NCBI GenBank assembly: GCA_050290185.1
Contig: JBNKHE010000007.1
Location: 32,001-96,000, forward strand
DNA: 64,000 bases
Source: Pontiella sp.
Lineage (GTDB): Bacteria; Verrucomicrobiota; Kiritimatiellia; Kiritimatiellales; Pontiellaceae
Direction of reading: 5' to 3'
Shown: positions 9,519-35,451 of the stretch, in pieces
Layout of the letters: each line of letters starts with the position of its first letter
Numbering within the stretch: the stretch's first letter is position 1
Notes under the pieces: model-generated
Told to the model about the DNA's origin: nothing
Seen by the model: only the letters and a program-made list of their open reading frames with translations
Database searches by the model: none
Translations under genes and position numbers: made by a program

Positions 9519-11333
9519 ATGAGCGAGCTGATACTGACGATCAAGGAAATCTGCGCAAAATACGGCAACGACCGAGCACGGTTGATGGATATGGTGCGGG
9601 AGGTGCAAGAAACATTCGACCATGTCCCTCGCGAGGCATTCGACCTTATCGCAAAGGAGGCGAAGACGCATCGAGTTGAGGTGGAAAGTGTCGTTTCTTT
9701 CTATGCGTTCCTGTCCGACAAGAAGCAGGGAGAGGTCGTCATCCGGCTTTGCGATGATATTATTGACCGCTTTCAAGGGAGTAGCGAGGTGGGCGAGACG
9801 CTCTGCAAGGAGCTGAACATTGACTTCGGCGAAACCACTCAGGATGGATGCATCACGCTTGAGAAGACGCCGTGTATTGGTATGAGCGATCAGGCTCCGG
9901 CAATGATGGTTAACGACACCGTCGTTACCAACCTGACCCCGGATAAGATCCCTCATCTGGTAAAACAGCTACGAAAGAATCCCGATCCGAGGGCGCTGGT
10001 GACAGAAGTTGGCGACGGCAACAATGCCGACCCTCTGGTCATGCAAATGGTAAAAAACAATATTTGCGTGGCTGGAACCGTAATCCTTTCTGATTACCGC
10101 AAAGACAGCGGTCTGCGCAAGGCATTGACCCAAACCCCCGAAGAGGTAATCGAAGACGTCAAGGGTTCCGGGCTTCGCGGCCGCGGCGGGGCGGGATTTC
10201 TGACTGGTTTTAAATGGGAACTGACCCGGCAGGCAGCCGGAACCGAAAAGTTCGTCCTTTGCAATGCCGACGAAGGAGAGCCGGGCACGTTCAAGGACCG
10301 CGTGTTGCTGACCGAGCGTGCCGACCTGGTGCTGGAAGGCATGACGGTGGCGGCCTACGCCATCGGTGCAGAAACGGGTATTATCTATCTTCGCGGCGAA
10401 TACGCCTATCTACGCGCATTCCTTGAGGACAAGATGAACCAGCGGCGCAGTGCCAACCTGCTCGGAAACAATATTCTCGACAAAGAAGGCTTTAATTTTG
10501 ACGTCCGGATTCAGATGGGTGCCGGAGCATATGTGTGCGGCGAGGAAACCTCGCTCATCAGTTCGTGTGAAGGCACACGCGGCGATCCGACCGACCGCAC
10601 GCCGTTCCCGGTGGTGAAAGGCTACATGGTTTCACCAACAGCCGTAAACAATGTAGAAAGCTACTGTTGCGCCGCGCGGATTATGGACAAAGGGCCGGGT
10701 TGGTTTTCCTCCCTCGGCACCGAACGCAGTGCAGGGACCAAGCTGCTCAGCGTCTGCGGCGATTGTGCGCGTCCGGGTATCTACGAAGTGGAGTTCGGTA
10801 CCAAGCTGCGCGAAGTTCTTGACCTTGCAGGAGCGGAGGATGTGGCTTGTGTCTGCGTGGGCGGCCCCTCCGGACAGATGGTGGGTCCGGCCCAATTCGA
10901 CCTGGGCATCAGCTACGAGGAACTCTCGACCGGCGGCTCGATGATGGTTTTCAGCAATCGGCGCGACATCCTCGAGGTAGCCGAAGCGTTCATGGAATTC
11001 TTCGTGGATGAAAGCTGTGGCTACTGCGTACCTTGCCGTGTCGGCAACGTGCTGTTGAAGAATCGACTGGAACGCGTTCGCAAGGGCGAGGGAGCACAGG
11101 GTGATCTCGACTATCTGCAACGCTTGGGCGAGAGCATCAAGTTCTCCAGCCGCTGCGGGCTGGGGCAGACCTCGCCCAATCCGATTCTCTCTACGTTGAA
11201 AAACTTTCGCCCCGTCTACAATGCCTTGGTCAAGGATGACAAAAGCGGGCTCAACAAGTCGTTCAACATCATGAAAGCCGTCGAGGAGGCCAGTGCCATC
11301 GCCGGCCGCCGTTCTGAAATTTTCCATGCCTAG
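9519..11333 (+). CDS. hoxF: NAD-reducing [NiFe]-hydrogenase diaphorase large subunit (NuoE-like + NuoF-like fusion)
   Basis: GLRGRGGAGF, CNADEGEPGTFKDR, GAYVCGEET, ESCGYCVPCRVG..CGLG. Confidence 0.93.
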   Translation: MSELILTIKEICAKYGNDRARLMDMVREVQETFDHVPREAFDLIAKEAKTHRVEVESVVSFYAFLSDKKQGEVVIRLCDDIIDRFQGSSEVGETLCKELNIDFGETTQDGCITLEKTPCIGMSDQAPAMMVNDTVVTNLTPDKIPHLVKQLRKNPDPRALVTEVGDGNNADPLVMQMVKNNICVAGTVILSDYRKDSGLRKALTQTPEEVIEDVKGSGLRGRGGAGFLTGFKWELTRQAAGTEKFVLCNADEGEPGTFKDRVLLTERADLVLEGMTVAAYAIGAETGIIYLRGEYAYLRAFLEDKMNQRRSANLLGNNILDKEGFNFDVRIQMGAGAYVCGEETSLISSCEGTRGDPTDRTPFPVVKGYMVSPTAVNNVESYCCAARIMDKGPGWFSSLGTERSAGTKLLSVCGDCARPGIYEVEFGTKLREVLDLAGAEDVACVCVGGPSGQMVGPAQFDLGISYEELSTGGSMMVFSNRRDILEVAEAFMEFFVDESCGYCVPCRVGNVLLKNRLERVRKGEGAQGDLDYLQRLGESIKFSSRCGLGQTSPNPILSTLKNFRPVYNALVKDDKSGLNKSFNIMKAVEEASAIAGRRSEIFHA

Positions 11334-11343
11334 GAGGAATATT

Positions 11344-12051
11344 ATGAGCGATATGGTGAAAATTACGATCGATGGAAAAGAAATCGAAGCAACGGCCGGA
11401 CAGACCATCATGGAAGCTGCGGATGCGGCGGGGATTTATATCCCTCGCCTCTGTTCCCATCCGGATTTGAAGCCGATCGGTAGCTGCCGTGTTTGTACGG
11501 TCATCTGCGACGGCCGCCCGCAGGCCGCCTGTGTCAAGCCGGTGATGGAGGGCATGGTAATCCAGAACGACACCCCCGAGCTGCTGCAGCATCGACGAAA
11601 CATCATCGACATGATGTTTGTGGAGGGGAACCATTTCTGCATGTTCTGCGAAAAGAGCGGCAACTGCGAGCTGCAGGCGTTGGCCTACCGCTTCGGGATT
11701 ACGGCCCCGCAATATCCTTTTCAATTTCCCGAGAAGGAGGTCGATGCCTCTCATCCGGATATCATGCTCGACCACAACCGCTGCATCATGTGTGCGCGCT
11801 GTGTGCGCGCATCGCAGGAGCTCGATGGAAAGAATGTGTTCCAGTCGATCGGTCGCGGGTTCAATAGAAAGATCGGTGTCAACGGCGAGAAGGCGCTCGG
11901 GGATACCGATATGGCAGTCATCGACAAGGCCGCAGAAATTTGTCCGGTCGGATGCATTATCAAGAAGCGCGTCGGTTTTGAAGTCCCGGTCGGACAGCGG
12001 CTGTACGACAAGGAACCGATCGGTTCCGATATCGAGGAGGTGCGGTCATGA
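11344..12051 (+). CDS. hoxU: Hydrogenase diaphorase small (Fe-S) subunit
   Basis: IPRLC..GSCRVC..AC [2Fe-2S]; HFCMFCEKSGNCELQ; CIMCARCVR; CPVG. Confidence 0.93.
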   Translation: MSDMVKITIDGKEIEATAGQTIMEAADAAGIYIPRLCSHPDLKPIGSCRVCTVICDGRPQAACVKPVMEGMVIQNDTPELLQHRRNIIDMMFVEGNHFCMFCEKSGNCELQALAYRFGITAPQYPFQFPEKEVDASHPDIMLDHNRCIMCARCVRASQELDGKNVFQSIGRGFNRKIGVNGEKALGDTDMAVIDKAAEICPVGCIIKKRVGFEVPVGQRLYDKEPIGSDIEEVRS

Positions 12052-12593
12052 GCAAACCCCGGGTTGCCACTACTTCACTGGCCGGCTGTTTCGGCTGCCA
12101 TATGTCGTTGCTCGATATCGACGAGCGCATTCTCGAGCTGATCGAGCTGATCGACTTCGACCGCTCGCCGGTTGATGATTTCAAGCACATCACGCAACGC
12201 TGCGCCATCGGTTTGATTGAAGGCGGATGTTGCAACGAAGAAAACGTGCATGTACTGCACGAGTTCAGAGAAAACTGCGACATCCTGATTTCGTTCGGTG
12301 ATTGCGCCACGATGGGCGGCATTCCCGCCATGCGGAATAATATTCCGCTGGGAGAATGCATCAATGAAGCCTATCTCGACGGTATAACCGTCTACAACCC
12401 CAAGGGCATCGTGCCGCAGGATCCGGAGATTCCGTTGCTTCTCGACAAGGTGTATCCCGCGCATGAAGTCGTGAAAATCGACTATTTCCTGCCCGGTTGC
12501 CCGCCATCGGCCGATACGCTGTGGGCGGCGCTCACCGCCTTGCTTACCGACCAGCCAGTCGAGCTTCCGTACGAACTGCTGAAATACGACTAG
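12048..12593 (+). CDS. hoxY: [NiFe]-hydrogenase small subunit
   Basis: LAGCFGCHMS, GDCATMGG, LPGCPP; short single-cluster form. Confidence 0.93.
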   Translation: MSKPRVATTSLAGCFGCHMSLLDIDERILELIELIDFDRSPVDDFKHITQRCAIGLIEGGCCNEENVHVLHEFRENCDILISFGDCATMGGIPAMRNNIPLGECINEAYLDGITVYNPKGIVPQDPEIPLLLDKVYPAHEVVKIDYFLPGCPPSADTLWAALTALLTDQPVELPYELLKYD

Positions 12594-12603
12594 GAGATTT
12601 ACG

Positions 12604-14034
12604 ATGAGTACAAAGAAAATCACGATCGAGCCGGTAACACGCGTAGAAGGACATGGAAAAGTGACTATCCTGCTGGATGAAGCAGGTCAAGTCAGCCAGG
12701 CGCGGTTGCACATTGTCGAATTCCGCGGCTTCGAACGTTTCATCCAGGGGCGGCCGTATTGGGAAATTCCGGTTCTGGTTCAGCGTTTGTGCGGCATATG
12801 TCCGGTCAGTCACCACCTCGCCGCCGCCAAGGCGATGGATGGCATCGTGGGCGTGGATCAGTTGACGCCGACGGCGGAAAAAATGCGCCGCCTGATGCAC
12901 TATGGACAAACCTTCCAGAGCCATGCATTGCACTTCTTCCATCTGGTGTCGCCCGATCTTCTTTTCGGGTTCGATGCGGACCCCGCTGAGCGCAATGTAA
13001 TTGGCGTTGCAAAAAAGTTTCCGGATCTCGCGGTGCAGGGCGTGATGATGCGCAAGTATGGCCAGGAAATCATCAAGGCTACGGCCGGCAAGAAAATTCA
13101 CGGAACGGGCGCCATCCCCGGTGGAATCAATAAGAATCTTTCGATCGGAGAGCGCGACGGTTTCCTGAAGGATATCGATCAGATGCTCGAATGGTGCCGG
13201 GCTTCGCTGAAGATTGCCAAGGATTACACGTTGGAGCATATCGATGAACTGGCTGATTTTAGCTCCTTCGATTCCAATCACGTCAGTCTGGTTCGCGAAG
13301 ACGGGGCGATGGATCTTTATCATGGAAATCTGCGGGCGATTGACGCGAAAGCGGAGAAGATATTCGACCAGGTGGATTATCAGGAATATTTCAAGTATAT
13401 CGCCGAAGAGGTGAAACCGTGGTCCTACATGAAATTTCCGTTCATTTCCTCGTTGGGGCCGGAAACCGGCTGGTACCGGGTGGGTCCGCTGTCGCGCATT
13501 AATGCCTGCGACTTTATCGACACCCCCGAAGCCGAAGCCGCACGAAAGGACTTCCTCTCCATTACCGGCGGCAAGCCGAATAACATGACCATGGCCTATC
13601 ACTGGGCACGAATGATCGAACTGCTTCACGCCGGTGAAAAAATCCGAGAGCTACTGAACGATCCGGATCTGCAAGGCACGGATCTCGTTGTGAAGGGCGA
13701 GCGCCGGAGTGAATCGGTTGGGTTGATCGAGGCGCCGCGCGGTACACTGTTCCATCATTACAAGGTCGATGAAAACGATCAGGTAACGATGGCCAACCTG
13801 ATTGTCGCGACGACCAACAACAATACGCCGATGAATCTGGCGGTGGAAGGGGTTGCCCGCAAATACCTCTCCGGTGCGGAAATCACCGAAGGCCTGCTTA
13901 ACCGGGTCGAGGTGGCGATCCGCGCCTACGATCCATGTCTTTCCTGCGCCACCCACGCCATGGGCCAGATGCCGCTGATCATCGAACTTGAAGACGCCGA
14001 AGGAAATACCCTCGACCGGAGAGTGCGCGATTAG
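12604..14034 (+). CDS. hoxH: [NiFe]-hydrogenase large subunit, group 3d
   Basis: PVTRVEGHG, RGFE, RLCGICPVSH (L1), EAPRGTLFH, YDPCLSCATH (L2) plus cleavable C-terminal tail. Confidence 0.96.
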   Translation: MSTKKITIEPVTRVEGHGKVTILLDEAGQVSQARLHIVEFRGFERFIQGRPYWEIPVLVQRLCGICPVSHHLAAAKAMDGIVGVDQLTPTAEKMRRLMHYGQTFQSHALHFFHLVSPDLLFGFDADPAERNVIGVAKKFPDLAVQGVMMRKYGQEIIKATAGKKIHGTGAIPGGINKNLSIGERDGFLKDIDQMLEWCRASLKIAKDYTLEHIDELADFSSFDSNHVSLVREDGAMDLYHGNLRAIDAKAEKIFDQVDYQEYFKYIAEEVKPWSYMKFPFISSLGPETGWYRVGPLSRINACDFIDTPEAEAARKDFLSITGGKPNNMTMAYHWARMIELLHAGEKIRELLNDPDLQGTDLVVKGERRSESVGLIEAPRGTLFHHYKVDENDQVTMANLIVATTNNNTPMNLAVEGVARKYLSGAEITEGLLNRVEVAIRAYDPCLSCATHAMGQMPLIIELEDAEGNTLDRRVRD

Positions 14035-14755: not shown

Positions 14756-16660
14756 ATGGCGAAAATGTTCAATAGACCGAAGAAGGCAAACAAGGGTGCA
14801 CCGAGCGGTCTTGTGATCAGCCTGATATTCCATGCGGCGGCGTTTTTTATTGCCGGTCTGTTCGTTATTTTCACGGTGGTCAACGCTCCGGAACCCGAGT
14901 TCGAAGCGCCTCCGCCGATAGAGCGCCCGAAGATGAAGCTCAAAAAACCAAAGGTGAAGGTCAAGAAAAGTTCCAACCCCAAGCCTTCGTCACGGATCGT
15001 GGCCAAGGTCAAAACCAAGCAGATGCCTGAGATCCAGCTTCCCGACCTGATGGGGACAGGCGAGGGGTTGCTCGGCGGAACCGGGATGGGCGGCGAATTC
15101 ATGGATCTGCCCGAAGTCAAGGAGTTGACCATTTTCGGCACCGAGATGACCACGGGAAATGATCTGGTCGGCACCTTCTTCGACTTTAAGCGAACCAGTA
15201 GTGGCCTGAGCAAGCCTGTTAATATCGACCACTATGTACGTCCGTATATGATGGACGAAGTCATGCTCGATTTTCTGGAGAACGACTGGGATGTCTCGGT
15301 GTGGAATAAATATTATCATTCTCCGAAAAAGCTCTATGCCTCCACTATCTGCATCGGATGCACCGATTCCGTCGCAGCACCAGAAGCCTTCGGAGAAGAT
15401 ACCGAGGGATACGCGTGGGCGATTCTCTATCGCGGCAAGCTGGTTTATCCGGAGGATATCAAATTCCGGTTCAGAGGGGCTGGTGTACCTATTGCGGTGC
15501 GGGTAGATGGCAAGGTAGTGCTGATGTGCACCTTCCATTCCCAGGGAGCCGAGCAGTTTTATTATCCGATATGGAAATCGAGCGCGGGTGACACATTTAC
15601 CTATGCGATGGGGAACAACAAACAGGAAATCGGAGACTGGATCGAGTTGAAAGGTGGGGAGCCCGTCGATATCGAGGTTCTCATTGCGGATTTGGAGGGC
15701 GGGGTGATTACCGCCATGCTGGGGGTTGAGGTCGAAGGAGAAGAGTATCCACGGAACCCCTACGGTGGCGGCCCCACCATTCCTGTTTTCAAGACAGACA
15801 ACCTGACCCGTGCGCAGATCGATGCCCTCTATGTTGATGTCTTTCCCGGTGATGTTTGTCTAACCAACGGGCCGGTGTTCTGTGATTATGTGCCTAAGCC
15901 GATCATACTTGACGAATCGCCCGTAACGAATCGCCCGAAGGTGTTCTTGAAGGACGCGCTCAAGACTATGCGTGCATGGACTAGTTCCGAAGGGAAGACG
16001 CTCGAAGGGAAGTTGCTGATCGATGCCAATGATTACATCCTGCTGGAAAGCAATGATGGGCAAAAGAAGGTTCCGAAAACGCTATTGTCTGAAGACGATC
16101 TTAAGTTCCTGGACATGGCAACGCCGCCGCAGTTCAAGATCGAGTTTTCCAAGAGAAGCGAGCAAGTGGATATGACCCGGAAGGCCAATCCCAATGTGGG
16201 GATCATCGGTGCTTTGGCGGTCTTCAACTACACGTTTGGCGTCAAGATGAAATGCAGCGGAAAAATCGACTACGACCATCCGCTGACCGTCGAGTATTTT
16301 GCCATCGGAGGGGAAATCAACGGTGATGAGTATATCCTGCTGGACCGGAAATCCAGTATCATCACGCCGGGGGTCGCAAAAAAGTTTTCGTATGAGTTCC
16401 ATGGCCGCCCGGTGCGGCTCAAAAAATATGCATACCGGGCCGGCTCTCCATTTCACGGAAGGCGGACGGACGGTTACCTGATCGTCGTGACTGATGAAGA
16501 GGACAGGATTGTTCAATACAAGACCTCGAACAAATTCCTGTTCGATAATCTGGACAAGCTAAAGAGGCTTCCGGTGAATGCTTTTTTCGATAAAAACGGT
16601 GACAGGGCCTATCCGACTCGTCCCACCGATGCCGACCGACCGTCATGGACCCTGATGTAA
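14756..16660 (+). CDS. Uncharacterised membrane-anchored protein: SxxxH TM helix, Pro/Lys-rich linker, PA14-like domain, SHD1-like domain
   Basis: VISLIFHAAAFFIAG helix; EAPPPIERPKMKLKKPK linker; WAILYRGKL..KFRFRG..VRVDGK; RAWTSSEGKTLEGKL..LSEDD; domain names by pattern recognition only. Confidence 0.7.
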   Translation: MAKMFNRPKKANKGAPSGLVISLIFHAAAFFIAGLFVIFTVVNAPEPEFEAPPPIERPKMKLKKPKVKVKKSSNPKPSSRIVAKVKTKQMPEIQLPDLMGTGEGLLGGTGMGGEFMDLPEVKELTIFGTEMTTGNDLVGTFFDFKRTSSGLSKPVNIDHYVRPYMMDEVMLDFLENDWDVSVWNKYYHSPKKLYASTICIGCTDSVAAPEAFGEDTEGYAWAILYRGKLVYPEDIKFRFRGAGVPIAVRVDGKVVLMCTFHSQGAEQFYYPIWKSSAGDTFTYAMGNNKQEIGDWIELKGGEPVDIEVLIADLEGGVITAMLGVEVEGEEYPRNPYGGGPTIPVFKTDNLTRAQIDALYVDVFPGDVCLTNGPVFCDYVPKPIILDESPVTNRPKVFLKDALKTMRAWTSSEGKTLEGKLLIDANDYILLESNDGQKKVPKTLLSEDDLKFLDMATPPQFKIEFSKRSEQVDMTRKANPNVGIIGALAVFNYTFGVKMKCSGKIDYDHPLTVEYFAIGGEINGDEYILLDRKSSIITPGVAKKFSYEFHGRPVRLKKYAYRAGSPFHGRRTDGYLIVVTDEEDRIVQYKTSNKFLFDNLDKLKRLPVNAFFDKNGDRAYPTRPTDADRPSWTLM

Positions 16661-23121: not shown

Positions 23122-23826
23122 ATGCACTATCGAGCGGATTTTCATATACACAGTTGCTTGTCGCCCTGTGCTTCGTTGGAAATGTCGCCGGCAGCAATTG
23201 TTCGCCAGGCCAAGGATGTGGGCTTGAATGCGATAGCGCTTACCGACCATAACGCGGCATTCAACCTGCCTGCATTTGCGTCCGTGTGCCAACGCCTCGA
23301 TATGGATTGTCTTTATGGCCTGGAGGTCACGTCGGTCGAGGAGGCGCATATGCTTTGCCTCTTTGACGAGCTGGATGCGGCGCTTGAATTGGGCGAACGC
23401 GTGTATGCCAGCCTTCCCGATATCCGCAATCAACCAGACCGCTTTGGCGATCAACCGATTATTGACGAGCATGAGGAGATTCTTGGATTTGCCGAGAAAT
23501 TTCTGATCAGTGCCTCGTCATATGATATTGGTTCGCTGCTGGACCAGGTGCATTCGCTGGGCGGCTTGTTTGCGCCGGCGCACATCGACCGGGCGGTGTT
23601 TGGCGTTATTGCCCAGTTGGGTTTTCTTCCAGAAGAGGATTTCGATGCGGTTGAACTGACGCCGCGTGGCCGCCGCACACTGGCCCAGAACTACCCGATT
23701 CTTCGGAATTCGGACTCACATCAGCTTTCAACCATAGGATCGGCTTGCAGTGAATTTGATCTCGACCGGCTCAGCGTGCGCAACCTGCGTGAGTGCCTAC
23801 ATGCCCAGCGCGATCGTATGCGTTGA
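23122..23826 (+). CDS. PHP-family metal-dependent phosphoesterase
   Basis: DFHIHSCLSPC, ALTDHN, GLE..EEAH, AHIDR, NSDSH. Confidence 0.9.
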   Translation: MHYRADFHIHSCLSPCASLEMSPAAIVRQAKDVGLNAIALTDHNAAFNLPAFASVCQRLDMDCLYGLEVTSVEEAHMLCLFDELDAALELGERVYASLPDIRNQPDRFGDQPIIDEHEEILGFAEKFLISASSYDIGSLLDQVHSLGGLFAPAHIDRAVFGVIAQLGFLPEEDFDAVELTPRGRRTLAQNYPILRNSDSHQLSTIGSACSEFDLDRLSVRNLRECLHAQRDRMR

Positions 23827-26115
23827 GTTTTCTGTAGACACCGCTTTGGCCGCGGACTGCCGGATCCATTTTTTAAGCAGCAGCTGGGGGTAGGCGGGGG
23901 TGAAGTTGTAGGATAAAGCCAGATCGTCGAATGGTTGCTCCAAGTCTGGAAAACGATAGCTCAGCGCGACGCATAGGAGCGCCTTTTCCTGTGCGCTGAT
24001 GTCGAGATTCCGGATGGCTTCCAGGGTTGTTGTTTCTTCTCCGGAAAGCATCTTTACGATCCTGTTGTAACTGCTCCGGCCAGCGTCAACCTCTCGGATG
24101 GCTTTTTCCATGTTTCGCTCGGCTATCTGGAGCTTGTTTTGGCTCATTGCCGCACAATAAAGCACCAGGTGTTCCCAGTAGGGATGGTCCCTCTTTTGTG
24201 AAATTAGGGCGTCAGCGTCTGCAATCTGATCGCGGTGCAGGAATTCCTCCAGTGCGGTATGGGGGTTGCCCATGTCGGCCATGCATTCCAGATAGTCGCT
24301 AATATTGCCGACTGCGTAGAATCGAATGGCATTAAGATGAAGCAGATCTTCGGGCCACTTTTCACCGATTCTGGAGATTTCTGTGGCTGCTTCCTTGTGA
24401 TAGCCGGCGCACGTTAGGTAGAGCACGGTTCTGTCCGCGAGGCTTCGTGATTGTGACTGGATCCGGGTTTTCAGTGTGTCGGAGAGAAGCGAGTCATAGT
24501 CACGTAATGCAAGGAGTATGTTTTCGTTCAATTCCCTGAAGGCTCCGTTTTGAGGGGATCGTTGCATGGCTTGGGTAGAGAAGGGCAGGGCTTCTTTGAA
24601 CTGGCCGCGGATATAATGATCGTGTGCAATGGCATAGAGTCCGAGTCCGCCCATGGCGTTGTTTTTATCCGCGTGTTCATAAAGCCGGTATGCGCTTTGG
24701 CGGTCTCTCACAACCCGGGCTAGCAGGTAGTAATTCGTTGCGTCGTCCGGGTTGCTGTTGCAGCGCAATGTGTATTCATGTTCCAAGTCATGCCGAGGGT
24801 GGTTGATCGTCATATAGTTCTGGTAGTAGAGGTGCCAGGGAAGCAGAGACGGCGCGGCGTCCATTCCTTTGCGCAGGAATGCAAGAATCTCGGAATCGTC
24901 GGCCCCTTTGAAGGCGACCTGCAAAAGCTCTGCGGACTCTTTCAGTGCCGGATTCATGCGCAGTGCGTGGCGGGCATATGCGGTGGCAGAATCTTCCTGC
25001 TCAAGTCGGAGCATCAATTTCACCATGGCCATATGGGATTCGGGACGATAGAGGCTTATGGATGGTATCCTCTTCGCCTTGGGTGAAATTTTATGCAGAC
25101 CATGTTGAGGTTCTGATATCCCCGTGAAGAGGCGGATTCGGCCGGAGGATGAATAGGTGGTTTGGTTGTTTTTGTTATGGTCTGAAGATGCCGCTATCGC
25201 AAGCAAAGCCATGTTGTCTGGATTAATCACAAGCAGATGCTTTTCCAGCAGTTGCTTGATCAAGGGAATCGAGTACCGGAAGGATTGCGGAGGACTGTCT
25301 TCCATTTTTAATTCGTGTTCACCGAGCCTTAGTTTAATCTGTTTAGCATCACCGGGTTCGAGTTCATAGGTTTGATCGTCCAAGGCGAATCCATATTTTT
25401 GGAGTGAGCCGTTAACGATCCATGCCTTGTAGTTCTGCAATGATGAAACAGCCATGGTAATCATAACTATGGCAGCGGTTGCTGTGAGGGTAATAAGCGG
25501 CGTATAAGCGCGCAGGGGCGATTCTGGTTGAACCTTGAGTGCATCGAGATCTTTCGTTCCCTCCGAGGCTTCAAGCAAGCTTTGGCAATAGGCCAGTAGC
25601 TCTTCGGCTTGTTTACCTGCTCCAAGTACAATGGCCTTGCGGCAGTAATTCATGGCTTCCTGATATTCACTGAAGCGGCTCAGGCCCTGTGCGATGAGAT
25701 GCTGGATCTGCATGTTGGTTTCGAAGCGCAGACCGTACGATTTTCGTACATCATGGAACCACGATTCCATATCGTAGACCATTAATGTATGCAAGGCATG
25801 TGCACAGTTTTGAGGGTTGTCGGGCTCGGAGGCAAATCCCTCCATCATGAGATCGAGGTTGCGTTGCCGCTCCTTTGCGTACTTGCGGGCAGAGGTGACT
25901 CCCCGGTTGCCACATTGCGGGCATTCGTCAACCATGCGAAATTTGCCAATCGGCAGGAGTGGAATATTTACCAGTTTTGCGAAACGAGTGGTGGAATAGG
26001 TACTAAGCATCGTCAGCCGATGACATGCATCACATCGGCAAAAATGGGTCGTTATGTCGGATTTTCCAATATATTCCGTCTCAAACAGCATTGCATTCCC
26101 CGTAGTCACTACCAT
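23797..26115 (-). CDS. Uncharacterised membrane protein: N-terminal zinc ribbon, TPR-like repeats, one TM helix, C-terminal TPR region (start may be 26091)
   Basis: CDAC...IPLLP...CPQC; LITLTATAAIVMITMAV helix; helical repeats such as YYLLAR and ALPFSTQAMQRSP. Confidence 0.7.
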   Translation of the reverse strand: MVVTTGNAMLFETEYIGKSDITTHFCRCDACHRLTMLSTYSTTRFAKLVNIPLLPIGKFRMVDECPQCGNRGVTSARKYAKERQRNLDLMMEGFASEPDNPQNCAHALHTLMVYDMESWFHDVRKSYGLRFETNMQIQHLIAQGLSRFSEYQEAMNYCRKAIVLGAGKQAEELLAYCQSLLEASEGTKDLDALKVQPESPLRAYTPLITLTATAAIVMITMAVSSLQNYKAWIVNGSLQKYGFALDDQTYELEPGDAKQIKLRLGEHELKMEDSPPQSFRYSIPLIKQLLEKHLLVINPDNMALLAIAASSDHNKNNQTTYSSSGRIRLFTGISEPQHGLHKISPKAKRIPSISLYRPESHMAMVKLMLRLEQEDSATAYARHALRMNPALKESAELLQVAFKGADDSEILAFLRKGMDAAPSLLPWHLYYQNYMTINHPRHDLEHEYTLRCNSNPDDATNYYLLARVVRDRQSAYRLYEHADKNNAMGGLGLYAIAHDHYIRGQFKEALPFSTQAMQRSPQNGAFRELNENILLALRDYDSLLSDTLKTRIQSQSRSLADRTVLYLTCAGYHKEAATEISRIGEKWPEDLLHLNAIRFYAVGNISDYLECMADMGNPHTALEEFLHRDQIADADALISQKRDHPYWEHLVLYCAAMSQNKLQIAERNMEKAIREVDAGRSSYNRIVKMLSGEETTTLEAIRNLDISAQEKALLCVALSYRFPDLEQPFDDLALSYNFTPAYPQLLLKKWIRQSAAKAVSTENSTHTIALGM

Positions 26116-28232: not shown

Positions 28233-28555
28233 ATAAGAATGAGTTTAGGTATGGTGTTGGGGGGGGGCAAAAAATGGAGTCTCAAACGACCTTGTTGGGT
28301 TTTTACAGCAATTGGAACTTTCATTACACGACCTGTCCTTATATAACTTGATTTTGAGAATAGCGTAGTTGTGGTTGAGATGCGATGGCAGGTTCTTCTG
28401 GATGGAGTAGGCCGTGTGTCGGAATCGGCGCAGAGGGCAAGGTTGCGACGAGGAATAAAGATTGACGCAGGTTGTGATTTCAGGCATCTCTGTAGCCAGA
28501 CTATCTAGATGTGCACTGGGGAGTATACTACACAGTTTTAGGGAACGAGTTGAAG

Positions 28556-31500
28556 ATGTTGACTAAAAAACTATGCCGATTTTCGGCAATTCGAACTTAC
28601 TTGTTGGTATTCGGTATTTTGCTGGGACTTTCTGCGGCCTGCCTAGCTCAGGAAAGCGATGAGCCAACTCCCCCGGAAATTCTTGCTCAGGCGATGCAGA
28701 TGCTGCGAACCGAGCAATACGATGAAGCTATCGATCTGCTCTATGTCTATCTGGATGCCGTAGAAAAATCCAAGATGAGACGCGTTTTGGAAATCGCCCA
28801 GGATACGCGTTATAAACTCGCCACCCTTCTTATTTCCAAGGACCGCAAAGGGGAAGCGATTGATGTATTGGAGACGTATGTTTCGTTGCAGCCGGCAAAG
28901 CACATCCGGAAAGCGCGAAAAATGTTGGTCGCGTGTTACTTTGATGAAGAGAAATACGCGGAGTGCCTGCCGGCCATTACCAATGCGCTCTACTACAACG
29001 AGCACCCAATTGTATACGAAGAGGAAAAGAAGAGCGCCTTTGATCGAGAGCGACAGGATGCTTTCCTGGATGAAGGTGAAAAGGAAGAACCTGATCTCCC
29101 GTATTCGGCGGACGAGCTTGAGATGCTCAATTTCACGATGGGCGAATGCTATTTTAATCTCGGCCAGATGGAGGCCTGTCTCGAACCCTTTACCTATGTA
29201 GTCGATCGCACGAAAAATGAGCAGCGGAAAGGCTACTCGATCATGCAGATGATCAATGCGTTGATCGAGATACAAGGCTTTGATCGAATCATAGACTGGG
29301 TTCCTGCCCTTTACAAAACTCCTGCCCGTTTTGATATCCGGGTAAATCTGGCGTTGCTGAGAGCGGCCGCGGCTCTGTTTGAAACGGGTGAGTATGACAG
29401 CGCGTTGCCTCTGTACCGCATGATTCTTCCGCGCGAAGAATTAATCGAGTATCAGGAAAAGAAAATCAAACAAATGCGTATAGACGCAGGGCTTCCACCT
29501 GAATTCGGGGAAGAGCTTACGTCTGATGAGGCGCTCTTGTTCGGCACAGCGGATGCAGAGCGTGAAATGGATGACTCTTCATCCGCTATGACACTGGCTG
29601 CAGGCGTGCGGCTTGTAGAGGATGATGAAAAACAAGAGAAGAAGATGGAGCAGCCGGCCGAGGTGCTTGAACTTCAAATGTTGCTCGAAACGCTCAAGGG
29701 CATGGCTCCGTACGAAGACTACGTTGATTTTCAGATGGCCCAGCTTTACAAAAACGTCGACCGCTACTGGGAAGCCATTAAGTTCTACGATACGGTTTAC
29801 GCTGCGGAAGATGCCGGAGATATAGGCGAACGCTCCATATACGAGGCCGTCTCCGTTTTGATCAACAACCTTAGTCTACGCGAAGATGCGGAGAAACGGG
29901 CCTTCAGCTATCTGGAATCCCATCACACGGGAAGGTACCCCCGTTTGGTGGCTTATGTTCTTACCAGCTACTATCAGCGGAACAGGGCGTGGAAAGATGT
30001 AAAAAACATTCGCCCGTATATTGAACAAATTGAACGAACAAATGATGTTCTGCTGGTTAAGTACGATACGGAATTGTACTTCATGCAGGGGGTGGCTGAC
30101 TTGATGCTTCAGCATTACTCCAATGCGGTCGAACGCTTCCAGTATGTCATGGATGAATTTCCAGATACGGATCAGGAAGCCAATAGCCTGTTCTGGTGTG
30201 GATTCTCCTACCTCTGTCTCGATCAACACGAAAAAGCCTACGACTGTTTCGAGCGCTATACCCGCGATTTCGCGAACCTTGACCCGGATAAATCGATGCT
30301 GGACGAAGCCTATTACCAAGGCGGCATCTGCCTTTTCGGTCTGGATCGGCTGGATGAAGCCAAGGATAGGTTCTCCTACGTCATCGATACCTATGGGACG
30401 AATTCCACGGTATATCCCGATTCCTGCAATATGCGCGGGGATATTCTGGGATCGTTGGGTGGGACCAATCTGGACTTGGCCATCCAGGACTATAAAAATT
30501 CTTTCGCCAATGCAACCAAGGCCACCCAGGCCACATACGCCACGTTCAAGATGTGTGACATCTTCAAGGCGGATGAACACTATTATGGTTTGGACTACGT
30601 ACTGGAGGCCGTAAACCTTTATCTAGCGAAATGGGGGGACAGAGGGGCGGATATTGCCAAGGCCCTGTTCTGGCTAGGTCGTGCCGAGATTCAGCGAGGC
30701 AGGTACGAAGCCGCTGCGGAAAGCTATATGCAGGCCGTAATTGATTATGGCGGTGACCTGCGGCAGGACGGGGTTGATATGATGATTCCCGAACTGGTTA
30801 AGATCTGTACCGTATTCCTCAGTGAAGATCAGGCAGAAGTGATTAAAGAGCGGTTGCGTATCGCCATGGAATCCACCGATAATCAAGTGTTAAAACTCCG
30901 TCTGCGCGTCACGCTTGCCAAATTCGATGACAGCGTGGTTGAACTGGGCAAAAAACTACTCAAGGAGTTGCCAGATCTAAATAATGCATCACCGCCGGTA
31001 TTGTCCGCTATTTGCGAAGCTTCATTTGAATTGAATGACTATTCCCGGTCTGCCGAACTACTCCGTACGTTTAAATACAAGTTTGAAGATTCGGACTACA
31101 TGCGCTCCGCCTACAAATTACGCGCTTCCGGACAAATCATCAATGGTGACCTTGATGGGGCGCTGGAAACAGTGATCGCTGCACAAGAAGAGTACGGCAC
31201 CGACCGTACGGTATCGTGGGCGCAGTTGATGAAGGCGCAAACCCTGCTTTCTCAATCCCAGTTGTTTAGTAGCGATGATCCGCTGACGCAGGACAAGCTT
31301 AAGGAGGCGGCCAAATTGCAGTTGCAGATGCAGCAGGGCAAGCTTCTGGCCATCAATGAGCAACTGACTCAGCTCCAGAACAAATCCGAGAAGATGGATG
31401 ATTCGCGATTGCTGGCTGAGAAGGGCGAGCTTGATGAGAAAATCTCCAATCTACAGCGTGCTGTGGAAGGCAAGAGTGGGGAGACGAACGTCAGAGCGTT

Positions 31501-32020
31501 GCTGGCGCGCTGCACGCTTGATGAGGCCCGCGAGGAGAACAAGAATGTCATGAGTGTTCCAGAGTGGCGAGGCGAACCTTTTGCCCAGGCGACTTATCAG
31601 TTGGGTGAGGTCGAGGAAGAGGCTGGAAATCTTCTCGAGGCACACGGCTACTACCAGCGGGCGTATTTCCAGTATAAGGGGCTTGGCGAATGGTGTGCGA
31701 AGGGCTACCTCGCGGCAGCCAACGTCTTGAAGAAACTGTCCGAAGATCCGAGTCTGGATTCAGAGCAAAGAAGCGAATATGAAGACGCCAGAATCAGCAC
31801 CCTTAAAGCAATGTTGCTCGACGAGTATGCAAATGAAAGCCCGCAGGCACAGGAGGCTCGTGATATCCTGGGTCCGACTGTAGTTGCAGGTATAGAGACG
31901 CTTATTGCTTCGGGGGTGGAAACCAATATTGAAGTGATTGTAGAAAGCAAGAAGGCGGACCCCGATAAAGTCGAGCCGTCGGATAAAAACACCAATTCGG
32001 CTACGGAAGGGAATGCGTAA
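28556..32020 (+). CDS. Giant secreted/periplasmic TPR protein
   Basis: Signal peptide ending ACLA-QE; many TPR-like helices (AYYQGG, ALFWLGR, ATYQLGE, YQRAY..Y..W). Confidence 0.85.
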   Translation: MLTKKLCRFSAIRTYLLVFGILLGLSAACLAQESDEPTPPEILAQAMQMLRTEQYDEAIDLLYVYLDAVEKSKMRRVLEIAQDTRYKLATLLISKDRKGEAIDVLETYVSLQPAKHIRKARKMLVACYFDEEKYAECLPAITNALYYNEHPIVYEEEKKSAFDRERQDAFLDEGEKEEPDLPYSADELEMLNFTMGECYFNLGQMEACLEPFTYVVDRTKNEQRKGYSIMQMINALIEIQGFDRIIDWVPALYKTPARFDIRVNLALLRAAAALFETGEYDSALPLYRMILPREELIEYQEKKIKQMRIDAGLPPEFGEELTSDEALLFGTADAEREMDDSSSAMTLAAGVRLVEDDEKQEKKMEQPAEVLELQMLLETLKGMAPYEDYVDFQMAQLYKNVDRYWEAIKFYDTVYAAEDAGDIGERSIYEAVSVLINNLSLREDAEKRAFSYLESHHTGRYPRLVAYVLTSYYQRNRAWKDVKNIRPYIEQIERTNDVLLVKYDTELYFMQGVADLMLQHYSNAVERFQYVMDEFPDTDQEANSLFWCGFSYLCLDQHEKAYDCFERYTRDFANLDPDKSMLDEAYYQGGICLFGLDRLDEAKDRFSYVIDTYGTNSTVYPDSCNMRGDILGSLGGTNLDLAIQDYKNSFANATKATQATYATFKMCDIFKADEHYYGLDYVLEAVNLYLAKWGDRGADIAKALFWLGRAEIQRGRYEAAAESYMQAVIDYGGDLRQDGVDMMIPELVKICTVFLSEDQAEVIKERLRIAMESTDNQVLKLRLRVTLAKFDDSVVELGKKLLKELPDLNNASPPVLSAICEASFELNDYSRSAELLRTFKYKFEDSDYMRSAYKLRASGQIINGDLDGALETVIAAQEEYGTDRTVSWAQLMKAQTLLSQSQLFSSDDPLTQDKLKEAAKLQLQMQQGKLLAINEQLTQLQNKSEKMDDSRLLAEKGELDEKISNLQRAVEGKSGETNVRALLARCTLDEAREENKNVMSVPEWRGEPFAQATYQLGEVEEEAGNLLEAHGYYQRAYFQYKGLGEWCAKGYLAAANVLKKLSEDPSLDSEQRSEYEDARISTLKAMLLDEYANESPQAQEARDILGPTVVAGIETLIASGVETNIEVIVESKKADPDKVEPSDKNTNSATEGNA

Positions 32021-33066
32021 TGAAAAAGGTTCTTTCAATATTTTTCGTACTCGCTTCCATCACGCTTTTTGCTCAAGGGCAGGAGCAATCGGGCATTGCC
32101 GCAAAAATTACAGCCGCCAATGGCCGGCAATTTCCCGTTTTTTTGCAGGGCATGAAAGATGATGAAATTGTCTTTCAACTCTATAAGAGTACATCAAATA
32201 AGGCGGTTCCGGCGCATCTGATTACTAATGTTGAGTTTGTTGGTCGCTTTGATGCTGATGGTATTGAACAGTTTTTTAGTACGGGTGACTATCAGGGCAT
32301 GATCGATAAAATGAATGCGGATTTAAAGCCCTCCTTTGATGACTACTGGCAGTATATGTCGATAGACAACAACCTGCAGGATATCTATACCATGCTCATG
32401 AAGGCTTATCTGAGGATGGGTAATGATGTCAAAGCGAGCGAGGCGGCTGCCATCCTGTTAAAGAACCCGGATGCCGGCGTCAAGGGGCAGGCCGAATCCA
32501 TTGCAATAATAGCAGCTCTGGGCGAGGGCCGGGTTTCCGACGCGGAAGCTATGCTCGGTGAGATTAACTCTGCTCCTGGAAAACTCTATCTCGGTGCTTG
32601 TGTTGAAAGAGCAAAGGGGTTGCCCAAGCAGGCCATTCAGCTTATTACGCAGTTGATCGCAGAATATGGCAACGATCTGGACTGGATGCCTCAGGCCGAG
32701 CTGCTTAGTGCTCACCTATACGTGGATATGGGGATGACCAACTCTGCCATCAACACGGCGCGGCAGGTGAAGAATATCTATGCAAAATCGGACGTTGGCA
32801 ATGAAGCTGCCAGATTCCAGGAAGAACTTGTTTTAGCGCAACAGAAAGCCGAAGAGGCGGCTAAAGCCAAGGCTGAAAAGGAAGAAGCCGATCGGGCTGC
32901 AGTCAAGGCACGGGCCGCCGAACGAGCCAAAGGATATGGATTCAATGTCGATACGGAGTCGGAAGAAGCGAATTCGGTCGATCAGGAAGACGGTGGGACA
33001 GCGGACGGATCAGCGACAGGGGATCAGGAGGGTACTGAGGAATCTGCACCCGCTCCAGATGCCTAG
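32020..33066 (+). CDS. Secreted TPR-like protein with acidic disordered tail
   Basis: Signal peptide ending LFA-QG; helical repeats; translationally coupled to the upstream gene (TAATG). Confidence 0.8.
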   Translation: MKKVLSIFFVLASITLFAQGQEQSGIAAKITAANGRQFPVFLQGMKDDEIVFQLYKSTSNKAVPAHLITNVEFVGRFDADGIEQFFSTGDYQGMIDKMNADLKPSFDDYWQYMSIDNNLQDIYTMLMKAYLRMGNDVKASEAAAILLKNPDAGVKGQAESIAIIAALGEGRVSDAEAMLGEINSAPGKLYLGACVERAKGLPKQAIQLITQLIAEYGNDLDWMPQAELLSAHLYVDMGMTNSAINTARQVKNIYAKSDVGNEAARFQEELVLAQQKAEEAAKAKAEKEEADRAAVKARAAERAKGYGFNVDTESEEANSVDQEDGGTADGSATGDQEGTEESAPAPDA

Positions 33067-33139
33067 GGTTGATTTAAGTCAGGCTTTTATTTAACCAGGT
33101 AGTTGAATTAATCTGAATAAGTAAACGGAGGAAACAGGA

Positions 33140-33922
33140 ATGAAGAAAAGAATCTTGATGATGATGCTGCTTTTCGCGGCAGGAGTGGTTCTGGCTCAGG
33201 ATGGAGGTACATTGGCGGTCGCGGCAGATGAGCCGGTCGAGAAGATTAGCCTCTGGGGCTTGATTAAGACTGGTGGTTGGGCTATGTGGCCGTTGGGCGG
33301 TTTCTCATTCTTTATGGTTGCTCTTGTGATCCAGAACTTCATTGCCTTGCGTCCTAAAACCCTCCTGCATACGGAAATGATGCCCGAGTTGCTTGACTAC
33401 ATGCTCAACGACAAGGTCAAGACCTCTCTCATCTACTGCCGCAAGCATCCATCCATGTTCACGAACACGTTCGGTGCCGGACTGGAACGTTGCCTTGATG
33501 TGGAAGGCACATATGATTTTAGTAAAGTGAAGGAGTCTGTGGAAGAAGCATCCGTGGAACAGCTTTCCAAGCTCATGAAGCCTATCGATTATCTTTCGAT
33601 CATTGGCGCCAGTGCTCCGATGCTTGGTCTCTTGGGTACGGTATCCGGTATGATCAAGGCCTTCCATACCATGGGTTCGCAGGGTATGGGTAATCCAGAC
33701 CAGCTTGCCGCCAATATTGGTGAGGCGCTTATTACTACCGCGACAGGTCTGATCATCGCTATTCCGGCCATGTTCTTCTTTTTCTTCTTCAAGAAGGGAT
33801 TTCAGAAGACCTTGGCGACGCTGGGTCGCAACGTGGGTTTCCTTTTTGATGCACTGGAAAGCGGCAAGACCCCGGCAGCTTACATGGATTTGGAAGCACT
33901 CGAGAAACTGGATCGCGATTAG
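33140..33922 (+). CDS. MotA/TolQ/ExbB proton channel protein
   Basis: GGWAMWPL, APMLGLLGTVSGMIKAF, IGEALITTATGLIIAIPA. Confidence 0.94.
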   Translation: MKKRILMMMLLFAAGVVLAQDGGTLAVAADEPVEKISLWGLIKTGGWAMWPLGGFSFFMVALVIQNFIALRPKTLLHTEMMPELLDYMLNDKVKTSLIYCRKHPSMFTNTFGAGLERCLDVEGTYDFSKVKESVEEASVEQLSKLMKPIDYLSIIGASAPMLGLLGTVSGMIKAFHTMGSQGMGNPDQLAANIGEALITTATGLIIAIPAMFFFFFFKKGFQKTLATLGRNVGFLFDALESGKTPAAYMDLEALEKLDRD

Positions 33923-33974
33923 TTTTCCGTACGGCCTTGCGAGGCATCCACGCTCTCAAGTATAGGATCTTATT

Positions 33975-34379
33975 ATGAAACTGGAATCCAAAGAACTCGG
34001 AGATGAGATAGAGATTGATATGTCGCCTATGATCGACATGGTCTTCCTTCTCTTGATCTTCTTCATTGTTGCTTCCCAGATTATTGATGAAAAACCGAAG
34101 ATTAACGTTCCTGCAGCGGCGGCAGCCTCCATTCCGGAAACGCTTGACAACCGGCTGATGATTACCGTGACGAAAGATGATGTGTTTTTCTTCCGGTTGC
34201 AGGAGGTTACGTTCGATGAGTTAACCATCAAGATTCAACAGGAGTTTGAAGCCAATTCTGATCTGCGTATCCTGATTCGCGCCGACGCAGAGGTGCCGTA
34301 TAAGACCAATGAAAAAATCATGATGGCGTGCGCAGAAGTAGGTGCTGTTGATATAATCTTTTCCGCAGTTGAGGAGTAG
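33975..34379 (+). CDS. ExbD/TolR family protein 1
   Basis: DMSPMIDMVFLLLIFF, LIRADA. Confidence 0.93.
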   Translation: MKLESKELGDEIEIDMSPMIDMVFLLLIFFIVASQIIDEKPKINVPAAAAASIPETLDNRLMITVTKDDVFFFRLQEVTFDELTIKIQQEFEANSDLRILIRADAEVPYKTNEKIMMACAEVGAVDIIFSAVEE

Positions 34380-34386
34380 GAGACCC

Positions 34387-34824
34387 ATGGACCTTTCCAG
34401 TCAATATGAAGATGCAAAAATGGAACTGCAGATCGCTCCGTTGATCGACGTCGTGTTTCTTTTGCTGATTTACTTTATGGTAACGGCGCAGATTGTTCAG
34501 AAGGAAGGGGATATCCCCTTCATGTTGCCTGCCGACGTGCCGACGGTTGAAATGATTGACATCCCGGTTGAAGCGCGTATCCGCATCAACCCGGACGATT
34601 CCGTGATGCTTGAAGGCATGTCGTTCTCCTCATCAGATCGGAAGCTGGAGGGGTTGATCAACCAGATCGTTGGGCTTCGGAAAATGGCGGAAGCACAGCG
34701 GTCACCGTTCTTTGTTACGCTCGATCCGAATGAAGATACCCTGCACCGTCGGATTATCGACGTTATGGATGCATGCGCCGCGGCCAAGGTGAAGAACCTG
34801 ACCTTTGCGAAGAAGGGATCCTAG
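34387..34824 (+). CDS. ExbD/TolR family protein 2
   Basis: IAPLIDVVFLLLIYFMVT, IDVMDAC. Confidence 0.92.
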   Translation: MDLSSQYEDAKMELQIAPLIDVVFLLLIYFMVTAQIVQKEGDIPFMLPADVPTVEMIDIPVEARIRINPDDSVMLEGMSFSSSDRKLEGLINQIVGLRKMAEAQRSPFFVTLDPNEDTLHRRIIDVMDACAAAKVKNLTFAKKGS

Positions 34825-34852
34825 TTTTACTTATCAGATTCGTTTCCGAAGA

Positions 34853-34881
34853 GGGCCGTGCTTTTTGCGCGGCCTTTTTTT
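34853..34881 (+). terminator. Rho-independent terminator after exbD2
   Basis: gggccgtgc-ttttt-gcgcggcc hairpin plus T7. Confidence 0.8.
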
Positions 34882-34973
34882 CAGCTTTAAATTGTCGGAG
34901 CGGGATATATAATACATGGGTCATGTGAAGGAGAGGTATTAGCGGTAACGATCGTAATGAAAGGAGCTACGGT

Positions 34974-35402
34974 ATGAAATTTGCGGAATATCAGGATGTC
35001 AAATTAAAGAATCAGATTGCACCTTTGATCGATGTGGTCTTTCTTCTGTTGATTTATTTCATGGTTACGGCAACCCTCATCAAGAAGGAAGGCGATATTT
35101 CCTTTTCAATTCCTGTTTCGGGAGCGCCTATGACTGATTGGCCGGTGGAAGCCTATATTCAGATAGCCAACGATGGTGCTGTAACTCTAGAAGGCATGCA
35201 TTTCGACAGTTCCGATCGTGAATTACGCGACCTGGTGGGCCAAATTGCTTCGCTAAAGCAACTGGCCGATTCGCAGCAAACGGATTTCATCGTTACACTG
35301 GCTCCTTCGGATGACACGATGCATGGTCGTGTAATCGATGTCATGGATGCCTGCAGGGATGCCAAGGTCAGGCACTTGGCCTTTGCTCATAAAAATACAT
35401 GA
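34974..35402 (+). CDS. ExbD/TolR family protein 3 (paralogue of protein 2)
   Basis: IAPLIDVVFLLLIYFMVT..KEGDI, LEGM.F.SSDR.L, IDVMDAC shared with exbD2. Confidence 0.92.
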   Translation: MKFAEYQDVKLKNQIAPLIDVVFLLLIYFMVTATLIKKEGDISFSIPVSGAPMTDWPVEAYIQIANDGAVTLEGMHFDSSDRELRDLVGQIASLKQLADSQQTDFIVTLAPSDDTMHGRVIDVMDACRDAKVRHLAFAHKNT

Positions 35403-35423
35403 GGTGAACCATCGCAGTTTATG

Positions 35424-35451
35424 GGGCCGTGTGTTTTCGCACGGCCTTTTT
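35424..35451 (+). terminator. Rho-independent terminator after exbD3
   Basis: ggccgtgtg-tttt-cgcacggcc hairpin plus T run; similar to the 34853 terminator. Confidence 0.78.

Follow-up and report, generated by a model that had tools for sequence, protein, structure and literature searches.

A six-gene locus encoding a predicted proton motor and two large TPR-type proteins was analysed in a window of DNA (64,000 nucleotides of Pontiella sp., assembly GCA_050290185.1, contig JBNKHE010000007.1, positions 32,001 to 96,000 of the forward strand; window positions are given below). Sequence comparison identifies the locus as a paralogue, specific to Kiritimatiellales, of the MUL1-type cassette that is found across the Verrucomicrobiota of GTDB, MUL1 being the mucin-utilisation locus of Akkermansia muciniphila; by analogy, the cassette likely helps these marine bacteria to take up large sugar polymers. 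The system type has already been described in print (PMC12204202, available part of the text), and the candidate new machine of the original prediction is therefore a known operon type. What appears new is its form in the family Pontiellaceae, namely a duplication into two paralogous cassettes (W-type, in the window, and P-type), a spare ExbD gene and detached, multiplied arm proteins with PA14-like heads.

MUL1 is the only genetic handle on the passage of polymers across the outer membrane in those bacteria of the Planctomycetes–Verrucomicrobia–Chlamydiae (PVC) group that are without SusC/D-type transporters, and it belongs to a cassette kept phylum-wide; the comparison joins two literatures, that of the MUL1 phenotype and that of a 'vWA force transducer' operon without a phenotype.

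Locus and motor subunits

The genes TPR1, TPR2, ExbB, ExbD1, ExbD2 and ExbD3 follow one another on the same strand at 28556-35402 (+; open reading frame (ORF) calls and Pfam). TPR1 (28556..32020, +) encodes a giant exported TPR protein, Mul1A-like, of 1154 amino acids (aa) from ATG; an alternative GTG start at 28511 gives 1169 aa. The second exported protein, the Mul1B-like TPR2 (32020..33066, +; 348 aa), starts at an ATG that overlaps the TGA of TPR1 by one base, and the coupled TPR pair of the original prediction is borne out by these ORFs; the signal peptides of this pair, as of all window proteins, were judged by eye. ExbB, an ExbB/TolQ-like proton channel subunit (33140..33922, +; 260 aa, signal-like N-terminus), carries GLLGT at residue 163 and EALITT at 195. 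A membrane-helix Asp is kept in 3 of 3 ExbD proteins: Asp21 of the type 1 protein ExbD1 (33975..34379, +; 134 aa), Asp27 of the type 2 protein ExbD2 (34369..34824, +; 151 aa) and Asp20 of ExbD3 (34974..35402, +; 142 aa). All of these residues, which the first reading of the sequence had pointed out, were seen in the translations.

Pfam matches were: MotA_ExbB 7.6e-28 for ExbB; ExbD 3e-23, 9.5e-18 and 2.1e-18 for ExbD1, ExbD2 and ExbD3, respectively. The ExbB and ExbD proteins scored far under all equivalog cut-offs of NCBIfam, and ExbB was equidistant from solved ExbB (5sv0, 1.4e-9) and TolQ (8odt, 1.7e-9).

Directly 3' of ExbD2, a terminator-like hairpin with a U-run was found by RNA folding (34848..34880, +; −23 kcal/mol, z −4.5, 0 of 200 shuffles equally stable); it likely marks the end of a five-gene core operon. 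It is followed by a promoter-like site, TTTAAA-16-TATAAT (34886..34913, +), which is a consensus match only (10 of 12 positions), the promoter scan of the region being not above chance (7 sites vs 8.8 expected), then by ExbD3 and by a second terminator-like hairpin (35423..35448, +; 11 pairs, −19.2 kcal/mol, z −5.1) that resembles the first in sequence. ExbD3 is 57% identical to ExbD2; we read it as a tandem copy of the type 2 gene ExbD2 along with its terminator, which now probably forms a separate small transcription unit.

The third ExbD is a local add-on outside the design of the cassette, because congener cassettes differ in this slot. Seven W-type cassettes of the same genus were examined: three consist of five genes only, one has two arm genes after ExbD2, two reach the contig end, and none of the 7 has a third ExbD in the window form, which disposes of 'three ExbD' as a design feature. 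The remaining congener cassette (L145, G383:C111:81001-91000) has seven genes, the ExbD1-ExbD2 pair being duplicated in tandem; compared with the window, its extra ExbD copies were gained by a different route.

TPR proteins

TPR1 matched TPR families of Pfam (TPR_2 9.8e-13). Being the W-type paralogue, it has an additional coiled-coil segment (approximately residues 903-979), and its C-terminal tail is acidic. TPR2 gave no Pfam match; its AlphaFold model (predicted local distance difference test, pLDDT, 89.2) consists of a five-strand beta domain (26-73), TPR-like helices (79-253), a long helix (258-305) and a disordered acidic tail, and Foldseek returned generic TPR matches only. According to this model TPR2 is TPR-like by structure only. 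Its N-terminal beta domain was compared with SHD1, a domain found beside arm genes (see below), and the match was not supported (hhalign probability 11%, 38 columns).

Comparison with the Akkermansia MUL1 locus

The supplement table of PMC11480725 gives the following order for A. muciniphila: Amuc_0540 MreB, 0541 RNase E/G, 0542 AsnC regulator, 0543 and 0544 hypothetical, an untagged hypothetical, 0546 ExbD/TolR, 0547 hypothetical, 0548 MotA/TolQ/ExbB, 0549 endonuclease III. The gene mul1A is amuc_0544, and its transposon mutant is described as unable to use mucus-derived glycans (PMC12570417, accessible part); a review, in the part available, states that mucin products build up inside cells in a MUL-dependent manner.

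In the genome G078 (of the same phylum; family f36, genus g59) the run of genes is MreB, RNase E/G, a 347-aa protein, a 1101-aa TPR protein, a 104-aa ORF, ExbD (152 aa), ExbD (168 aa), ExbB (263 aa) and endonuclease III. This is the Amuc_0540-0549 order of the table, gene for gene, bar the AsnC regulator, which was not found in G078; the same arrangement was present in four more genomes of genus g59 (L133-L137: G078, G210, G063, G255, G015). These five loci are referred to as Akkermansia-type. Amuc_0543, the counterpart in position of the 347-aa protein, we take to be Mul1B. MUL1 itself was reportedly studied in A. muciniphila by Davey et al. in 2023.

All five protein types of the window are, on sequence evidence, homologous to those of the Akkermansia-type MUL1 locus. 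For the motor, pairwise BLAST was sufficient: ExbB is 31% identical to the Akkermansia-type protein (6e-24), and the ExbD subtypes pair one to one (ExbDa with ExbD1, 1.2e-13; ExbDb with ExbD2, 2.3e-13; ExbDb against ExbD3, 6.8e-16). BLAST links neither TPR protein convincingly (TPR1, 1.5e-4). Profile comparison by hhalign aligned the Akkermansia-type TPR1 family with the phylum family that holds the window protein at a probability of 100% (E 3.1e-46, 853 colinear columns), and TPR2 with the Akkermansia-type 347-aa family at 98.6% (E 1.4e-15, 278 columns). The link to MUL1, which the original prediction had put forward, thus holds for all five types, by BLAST for the motor and by profile comparison for both TPR proteins.

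The window and MUL1 (Amuc_0543-0548) share five protein types, all encoded on one strand: the giant TPR protein, the second protein (about 347 aa), ExbB, and ExbD of type 1 and type 2. Neither cluster holds a gene with a TonB C-domain. They differ in order, which is ExbB-ExbD-ExbD-(104-aa ORF)-TPR1-TPR2 in MUL1 vs TPR1-TPR2-ExbB-ExbD-ExbD in the window; 5 of 5 Akkermansia-type loci begin with the motor genes, and the window and 92 other cassettes with the TPR genes. The third ExbD is a feature of the window, vs two ExbD in MUL1, and in a quick tree the branch that leads to the Akkermansia-type TPR1 is very long. The usual gene order is kept by a sister genus that belongs to the GTDB family of the Akkermansia-type genomes. 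In PMC13174399, as far as its available text goes, MUL1 is read as a mucin-specific gut adaptation, its synteny missing in aquatic Akkermansiaceae; the spread of the cassette (see below) and the order in the sister genus are at odds with that reading.

Distribution and paralogues

In a collection of 5.8 billion proteins TPR1 had 134 relatives; those with a named source (Pontiellaceae, Pontiella species, Tichowtungia, unclassified Verrucomicrobiota) all belonged to Kiritimatiellales/Verrucomicrobiota except one 737-aa partial sequence labelled Gammaproteobacteria. A library of 1.84 billion representatives gave 673 matches at E ≤ 1e-3, 242 at 1e-10 and 76 at 1e-30. Among sampled genomes of the GTDB phylum, relatives were found in 87 of 301 by single-sequence search, and a profile of 26 TPR1 sequences matched in 311 of 401 at 1e-10, the latter list being bimodal, with full-length strong matches and weak generic-TPR matches. 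Named loci came from Coraliomargarita, Lentimonas, Thalassobacterium, Puniceicoccaceae, Chthoniobacterales, Lentisphaerae and Kiritimatiellia. The contig scan for relatives, which returned mostly Opitutales, gave no Akkermansia, and no Akkermansia name was met among the cluster members of 10 distant TPR1 representatives. The retrieved loci included 92 canonical cassettes (TPR1, ExbB and two ExbD on one strand), which are non-independent, Opitutales forming the majority; the TPR2 slot was filled by an ORF of at least 230 aa in 75 of them.

A second complete cassette, of the P-type, which is the commoner of the two, is present in the window's own genome (G000:C1:202023-207407, −): TPR1 938 aa, TPR2 288 aa, ExbB 251 aa, ExbD 133 and 144 aa; no arm gene stands beside it. 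Compared with the W-type of the window, identities were 27% for TPR1 (over 901 aa, E 1.7e-102), 25% for TPR2, 54% for ExbB, and 44% and 50% for the ExbD proteins. In a maximum-likelihood tree of 31 TPR1 proteins (quick search only) the W-type fell within a clade of 11 rows (Shimodaira–Hasegawa-like approximate likelihood ratio support 100). Because this clade is confined to two families of the window's order and adjoins the P-type of this genome, the W/P duplication arose, on this tree, inside the order Kiritimatiellales.

Other motors of the genome

The assembly (3.58 Mb, 95.5% complete) was searched as a whole for the protein families concerned; its contigs are denoted C1, C3 and so on, that of the window being C7. 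Eight MotA/ExbB-family sites were found, the window ExbB being the only one on C7. TonB_C was located at three sites (C1, C1, C9) and TonB-dependent receptor barrels at three (C1, C1, C8); neither was found on C7 by these searches. Two canonical Ton operons with receptors lie on C1, and a complete TolQ-TolR-TolA-TolB-Pal operon on C12. Because of these complete sets elsewhere in the genome, the cassette does not represent the housekeeping Tol-Pal set, nor that of Ton, and the locus does stand apart from canonical TonB and TolA-Pal genes, as had been proposed.

Common to the Ton system and to the cassette with its presumed arms are the ExbB/ExbD families, the Asp in the membrane helix, and an arm whose helix bears S-x3-H and is followed by a Pro/Lys linker; the cassette differs in being without a TonB C-domain or receptor gene, in that its ExbD subunits are of two unlike kinds, and in that it includes two large TPR proteins. 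With Tol-Pal and its CpoB/YbgF it shares a TolQ/TolR-like motor and a periplasmic TPR protein, whereas TolA, TolB and Pal are away on C12 and TPR1 is under the cut-off of the CpoB/YbgF model.

Two further observations concern these motors. On C3 (G000:C3:131236-134497; L128:1236-4497) an 879-aa protein with repeated YbgF/CpoB-type TPR units is encoded (217 bits vs a cut-off of 90.1, 6 stretches), directly followed by a TolQ-like gene (213 aa) with no ExbD/TolR gene adjacent. In a receptor-ExbB-ExbD-TonB operon on C1 (G000:C1:473112-475638, L130) a gene of the PD-(D/E)XK nuclease family (270 aa) stands between ExbB and ExbD.

Arm proteins

Among the 86 cassettes with enough sequence beyond ExbD2 to be informative, 68 have a gene for an arm protein of about 370-510 aa directly after ExbD2. 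In an alignment of 24 arms, one membrane helix was seen at the N-terminus, in which a His is invariant and a Ser four residues earlier nearly so; a Pro/Lys-rich linker and a Gly-rich stretch follow, and then a head of the vWA-like or the PA14-like class. Beside both cassettes of this genome, W-type and P-type, the arm gene is absent; in the window its usual slot is occupied by the third ExbD, which is followed by trpA, with no arm gene directly downstream.

Ten full-length arm genes were found elsewhere in the genome by tblastn (the window and nine others on C1, C3, C5, C8 and C10), 10 of 10 with S-x3-H, in two size classes of about 375-450 aa and 620-670 aa. Nine matched the PA14-class profile end to end; the tenth (C3:25806-27182) matches by its anchor only and groups with vWA-class heads. 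Next after three of the arm genes comes one for a protein of about 250 aa, in 2 of 3 cases with Pfam SHD1.

The window arm (14756..16660, +; 634 aa) lies 12 kb upstream of the cassette, has a TonB/TolA-like helix with S-x3-H, and is followed by genes for a PfkB sugar kinase and a KDPG aldolase. Its model (mean pLDDT 69.3) has the membrane helix at 17-41, a disordered Pro/Lys-rich linker at 42-124, a beta-rich PA14-like head at about 125-378 (pLDDT 80-93) and two further beta domains. It is, by these sequence features, a likely in-trans partner of the cassette motor. The original prediction had described the locus as receptor-less and TonB-less, with no TonB, Tol-Pal or receptor gene nearby. 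In cis this is correct, also for the TonB C-domain, Tol-Pal and receptors of the vicinity; it fails to the extent that an arm is the usual sixth gene of the cassette, that ten arms are present here unlinked, and that one protein with a TonB-like N-terminal anchor is encoded within the window itself.

Foldseek matched the arm head to PA14 sensor domains of clostridial RsgI (6qe7, 2.3e-9; 6qdi), to a yeast glycoside hydrolase family 3 (GH3) enzyme with a PA14 insert, and to the sugar-binding PA14 domains of the RTX adhesins 6m8m and 6x8d, with target TM-scores of 0.57-0.58. Pfam PA14 was at its cut-off on one arm relative, the ESM Atlas neighbours of the arm were PA14 clusters (leads only), and among PDB sequences the arm profile found a single, weak vWA match (ITIH4, 0.0017). 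At 1e-60 the PA14-class arm profile matched 2-22 times per genome in 11 of the 12 other genomes of Pontiellaceae; among the 60 other genomes of a class-wide sample it had one full-length match; PA14-class arms thus appear, from these profile counts, to be expanded in Pontiellaceae.

Immediate neighbours of arm genes were carbohydrate-related in 7 of 18 cases vs 1-2 of 20 for random genes, and include GH43 enzymes, proteins with an F5/8-type C domain and with a beta-helix (one each), a GDSL esterase, one ConA-like lectin/glucanase protein and sugar kinases; the adjacency of arms and carbohydrate-active enzyme (CAZyme) genes is suggestive only.

In PMC12204202, as far as the text is available, a PVC operon TPR-tolQ-tolR-tolR-force transducer, found via Tichowtungia, is described and its function is given as unknown; AlphaFold 3 models there place the arm His on the motor as in TonB and TolA, a gliding or AglZ-like role is suggested for vWA arms, no phenotype is named in that portion, and Akkermansia and mucin have 0 occurrences in it. 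By the names of TPR1 relatives, Tichowtungia is of the same order as the window organism. The published operon has the same architecture and arm family (SHLS-type helix with the conserved His) as the present system. According to the same available text it differs in having the SHLS-type transducer directly downstream, where the window has ExbD3, and in its vWA-headed arms; the window arm has a PA14-like head, and the PA14-class arms of this genome are multiplied and scattered.

Proposed mechanism and alternative explanations

We somewhat favour the view that the locus encodes a proton-driven ExbB-ExbD motor that pulls unlinked TonB-like arms to capture or import polysaccharide. By family, ExbB would form a pentameric proton channel ring. 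ExbD1 and ExbD2 may form a heterodimeric plug that carries the Asp, as is suggested by the two unlike ExbD subtypes always occurring together; ExbD3, probably transcribed separately under its own control, could replace ExbD2 as an alternative type 2 subunit. Arms would dock on the motor rim by their His-bearing helix, like TonB and TolA, and proton flow would pull the heads; docking is proposed because the His is invariant and because of the published models (PMC12204202). TPR1 and TPR2 are regarded as a putative periplasmic scaffold because their genes are translationally coupled and because the proteins have export signals and a TPR fold. Polysaccharide capture or import is the presumed output in view of the phenotype of MUL1, of the PA14 heads and of the genes that adjoin the arms.

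A wider proposal for Pontiellaceae, in which one or two shared ExbB-ExbD-TPR engines drive interchangeable PA14-headed arms from polysaccharide-degradation clusters, is possible and is made tentatively. If true, the arrangement would be a receptor-free counterpart of the SusC/TonB arrangement of Bacteroidota and could explain how large sulfated glycans enter Kiritimatiellota, whose TonB-dependent receptors are very few; the Akkermansia MUL1 would in that case be a rearranged form of a phylum-wide engine, not a gut-specific invention.

Several results weigh against polysaccharide capture by motor-driven arms, and some of them speak for envelope maintenance, i.e., a further motor of the Tol kind, which would tether or remodel outer membrane and cell wall, its TPR proteins acting like CpoB, NlpI or BamD. 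TPR1 has a YbgF/CpoB-like stretch (TIGR02795, 6.8e-17), sub-threshold at 62.2 bits vs a cut-off of 90.1, and a weak BamD match (NCBIfam); a gene for a Prc/Tsp tail-specific protease stands directly upstream in 4 of 8 relatives scanned (L117, L123, L125, L038); most of the genomes sampled from the phylum have the cassette, and a near-universal spread is more housekeeping-like than substrate-specific uptake; finally, ExbB is no closer to ExbB than to TolQ. This explanation is nevertheless unlikely: the genome has its complete Tol-Pal on C12 and a true multi-YbgF-repeat protein on C3; the YbgF score of TPR1 is under the cut-off; mul1A mutants of Akkermansia are reported, in the accessible text, as viable and specifically impaired on mucus glycans; and the arm heads are PA14 folds of the sugar-binding type beside CAZyme genes. 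Other adverse points concern the arms. They are unlinked, and the second cassette on C1 or the other ExbB loci may be their partners instead; the Akkermansia-type genomes have a single arm homologue, elsewhere, with an anchor lacking the His, so that the arm model may not extend to MUL1 itself; and the neighbour count is small, its categories were chosen post hoc, and the difference is at best borderline.

Two other outputs of the same motor were considered, both improbable. If the motor served surface adhesion or gliding, as Agl-Glt does, arms tipped with PA14 or vWA domains would grip surfaces or particles with no import. One TolQ-like and two unlike TolR-like subunits are the layout of Agl, and the best-matching PA14 domains include those of adhesins (6m8m, 6x8d); a gliding or AglZ-like role is, moreover, the one proposed for vWA arms in the available text of PMC12204202. 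However, the arms are anchored in the inner membrane, with a disordered linker of only about 80 residues in the model, and may fall short of the surface, no Glt-type gene turned up at the locus (no search aimed at Glt being made), and the MUL1 phenotype is reported, in the parts accessible, as uptake or utilisation. Alternatively, the arms might be polysaccharide sensors, the motor-TPR complex signalling across the envelope to switch on neighbouring CAZyme genes; the best folds for the arm head are indeed the PA14 sensors of clostridial RsgI anti-sigma factors, and genes for AraC- and LuxR-type regulators adjoin two arm genes. Against sensing stand the arms themselves, which are without a cytoplasmic output domain, only about 16 residues preceding the membrane helix, and their invariant His, which matches the motor-binding motif of force transducers.

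Neighbouring genes

The flanks of the cassette encode metabolism unrelated to it (Pfam): a DAHP synthase/chorismate mutase upstream; trpA and a gene of the mannose-1-phosphate guanylyltransferase type downstream. About 2.4 kb upstream of the cassette a 772-aa protein is encoded (23797-26115, −), with weak TPR and zinc-ribbon matches only. A cluster of the NADH-linked [NiFe]-hydrogenase type (9519-14034, +) lies directly upstream of the window arm and comprises a NuoE/F-like fusion, a NuoG-like ferredoxin, and the small and large hydrogenase subunits.

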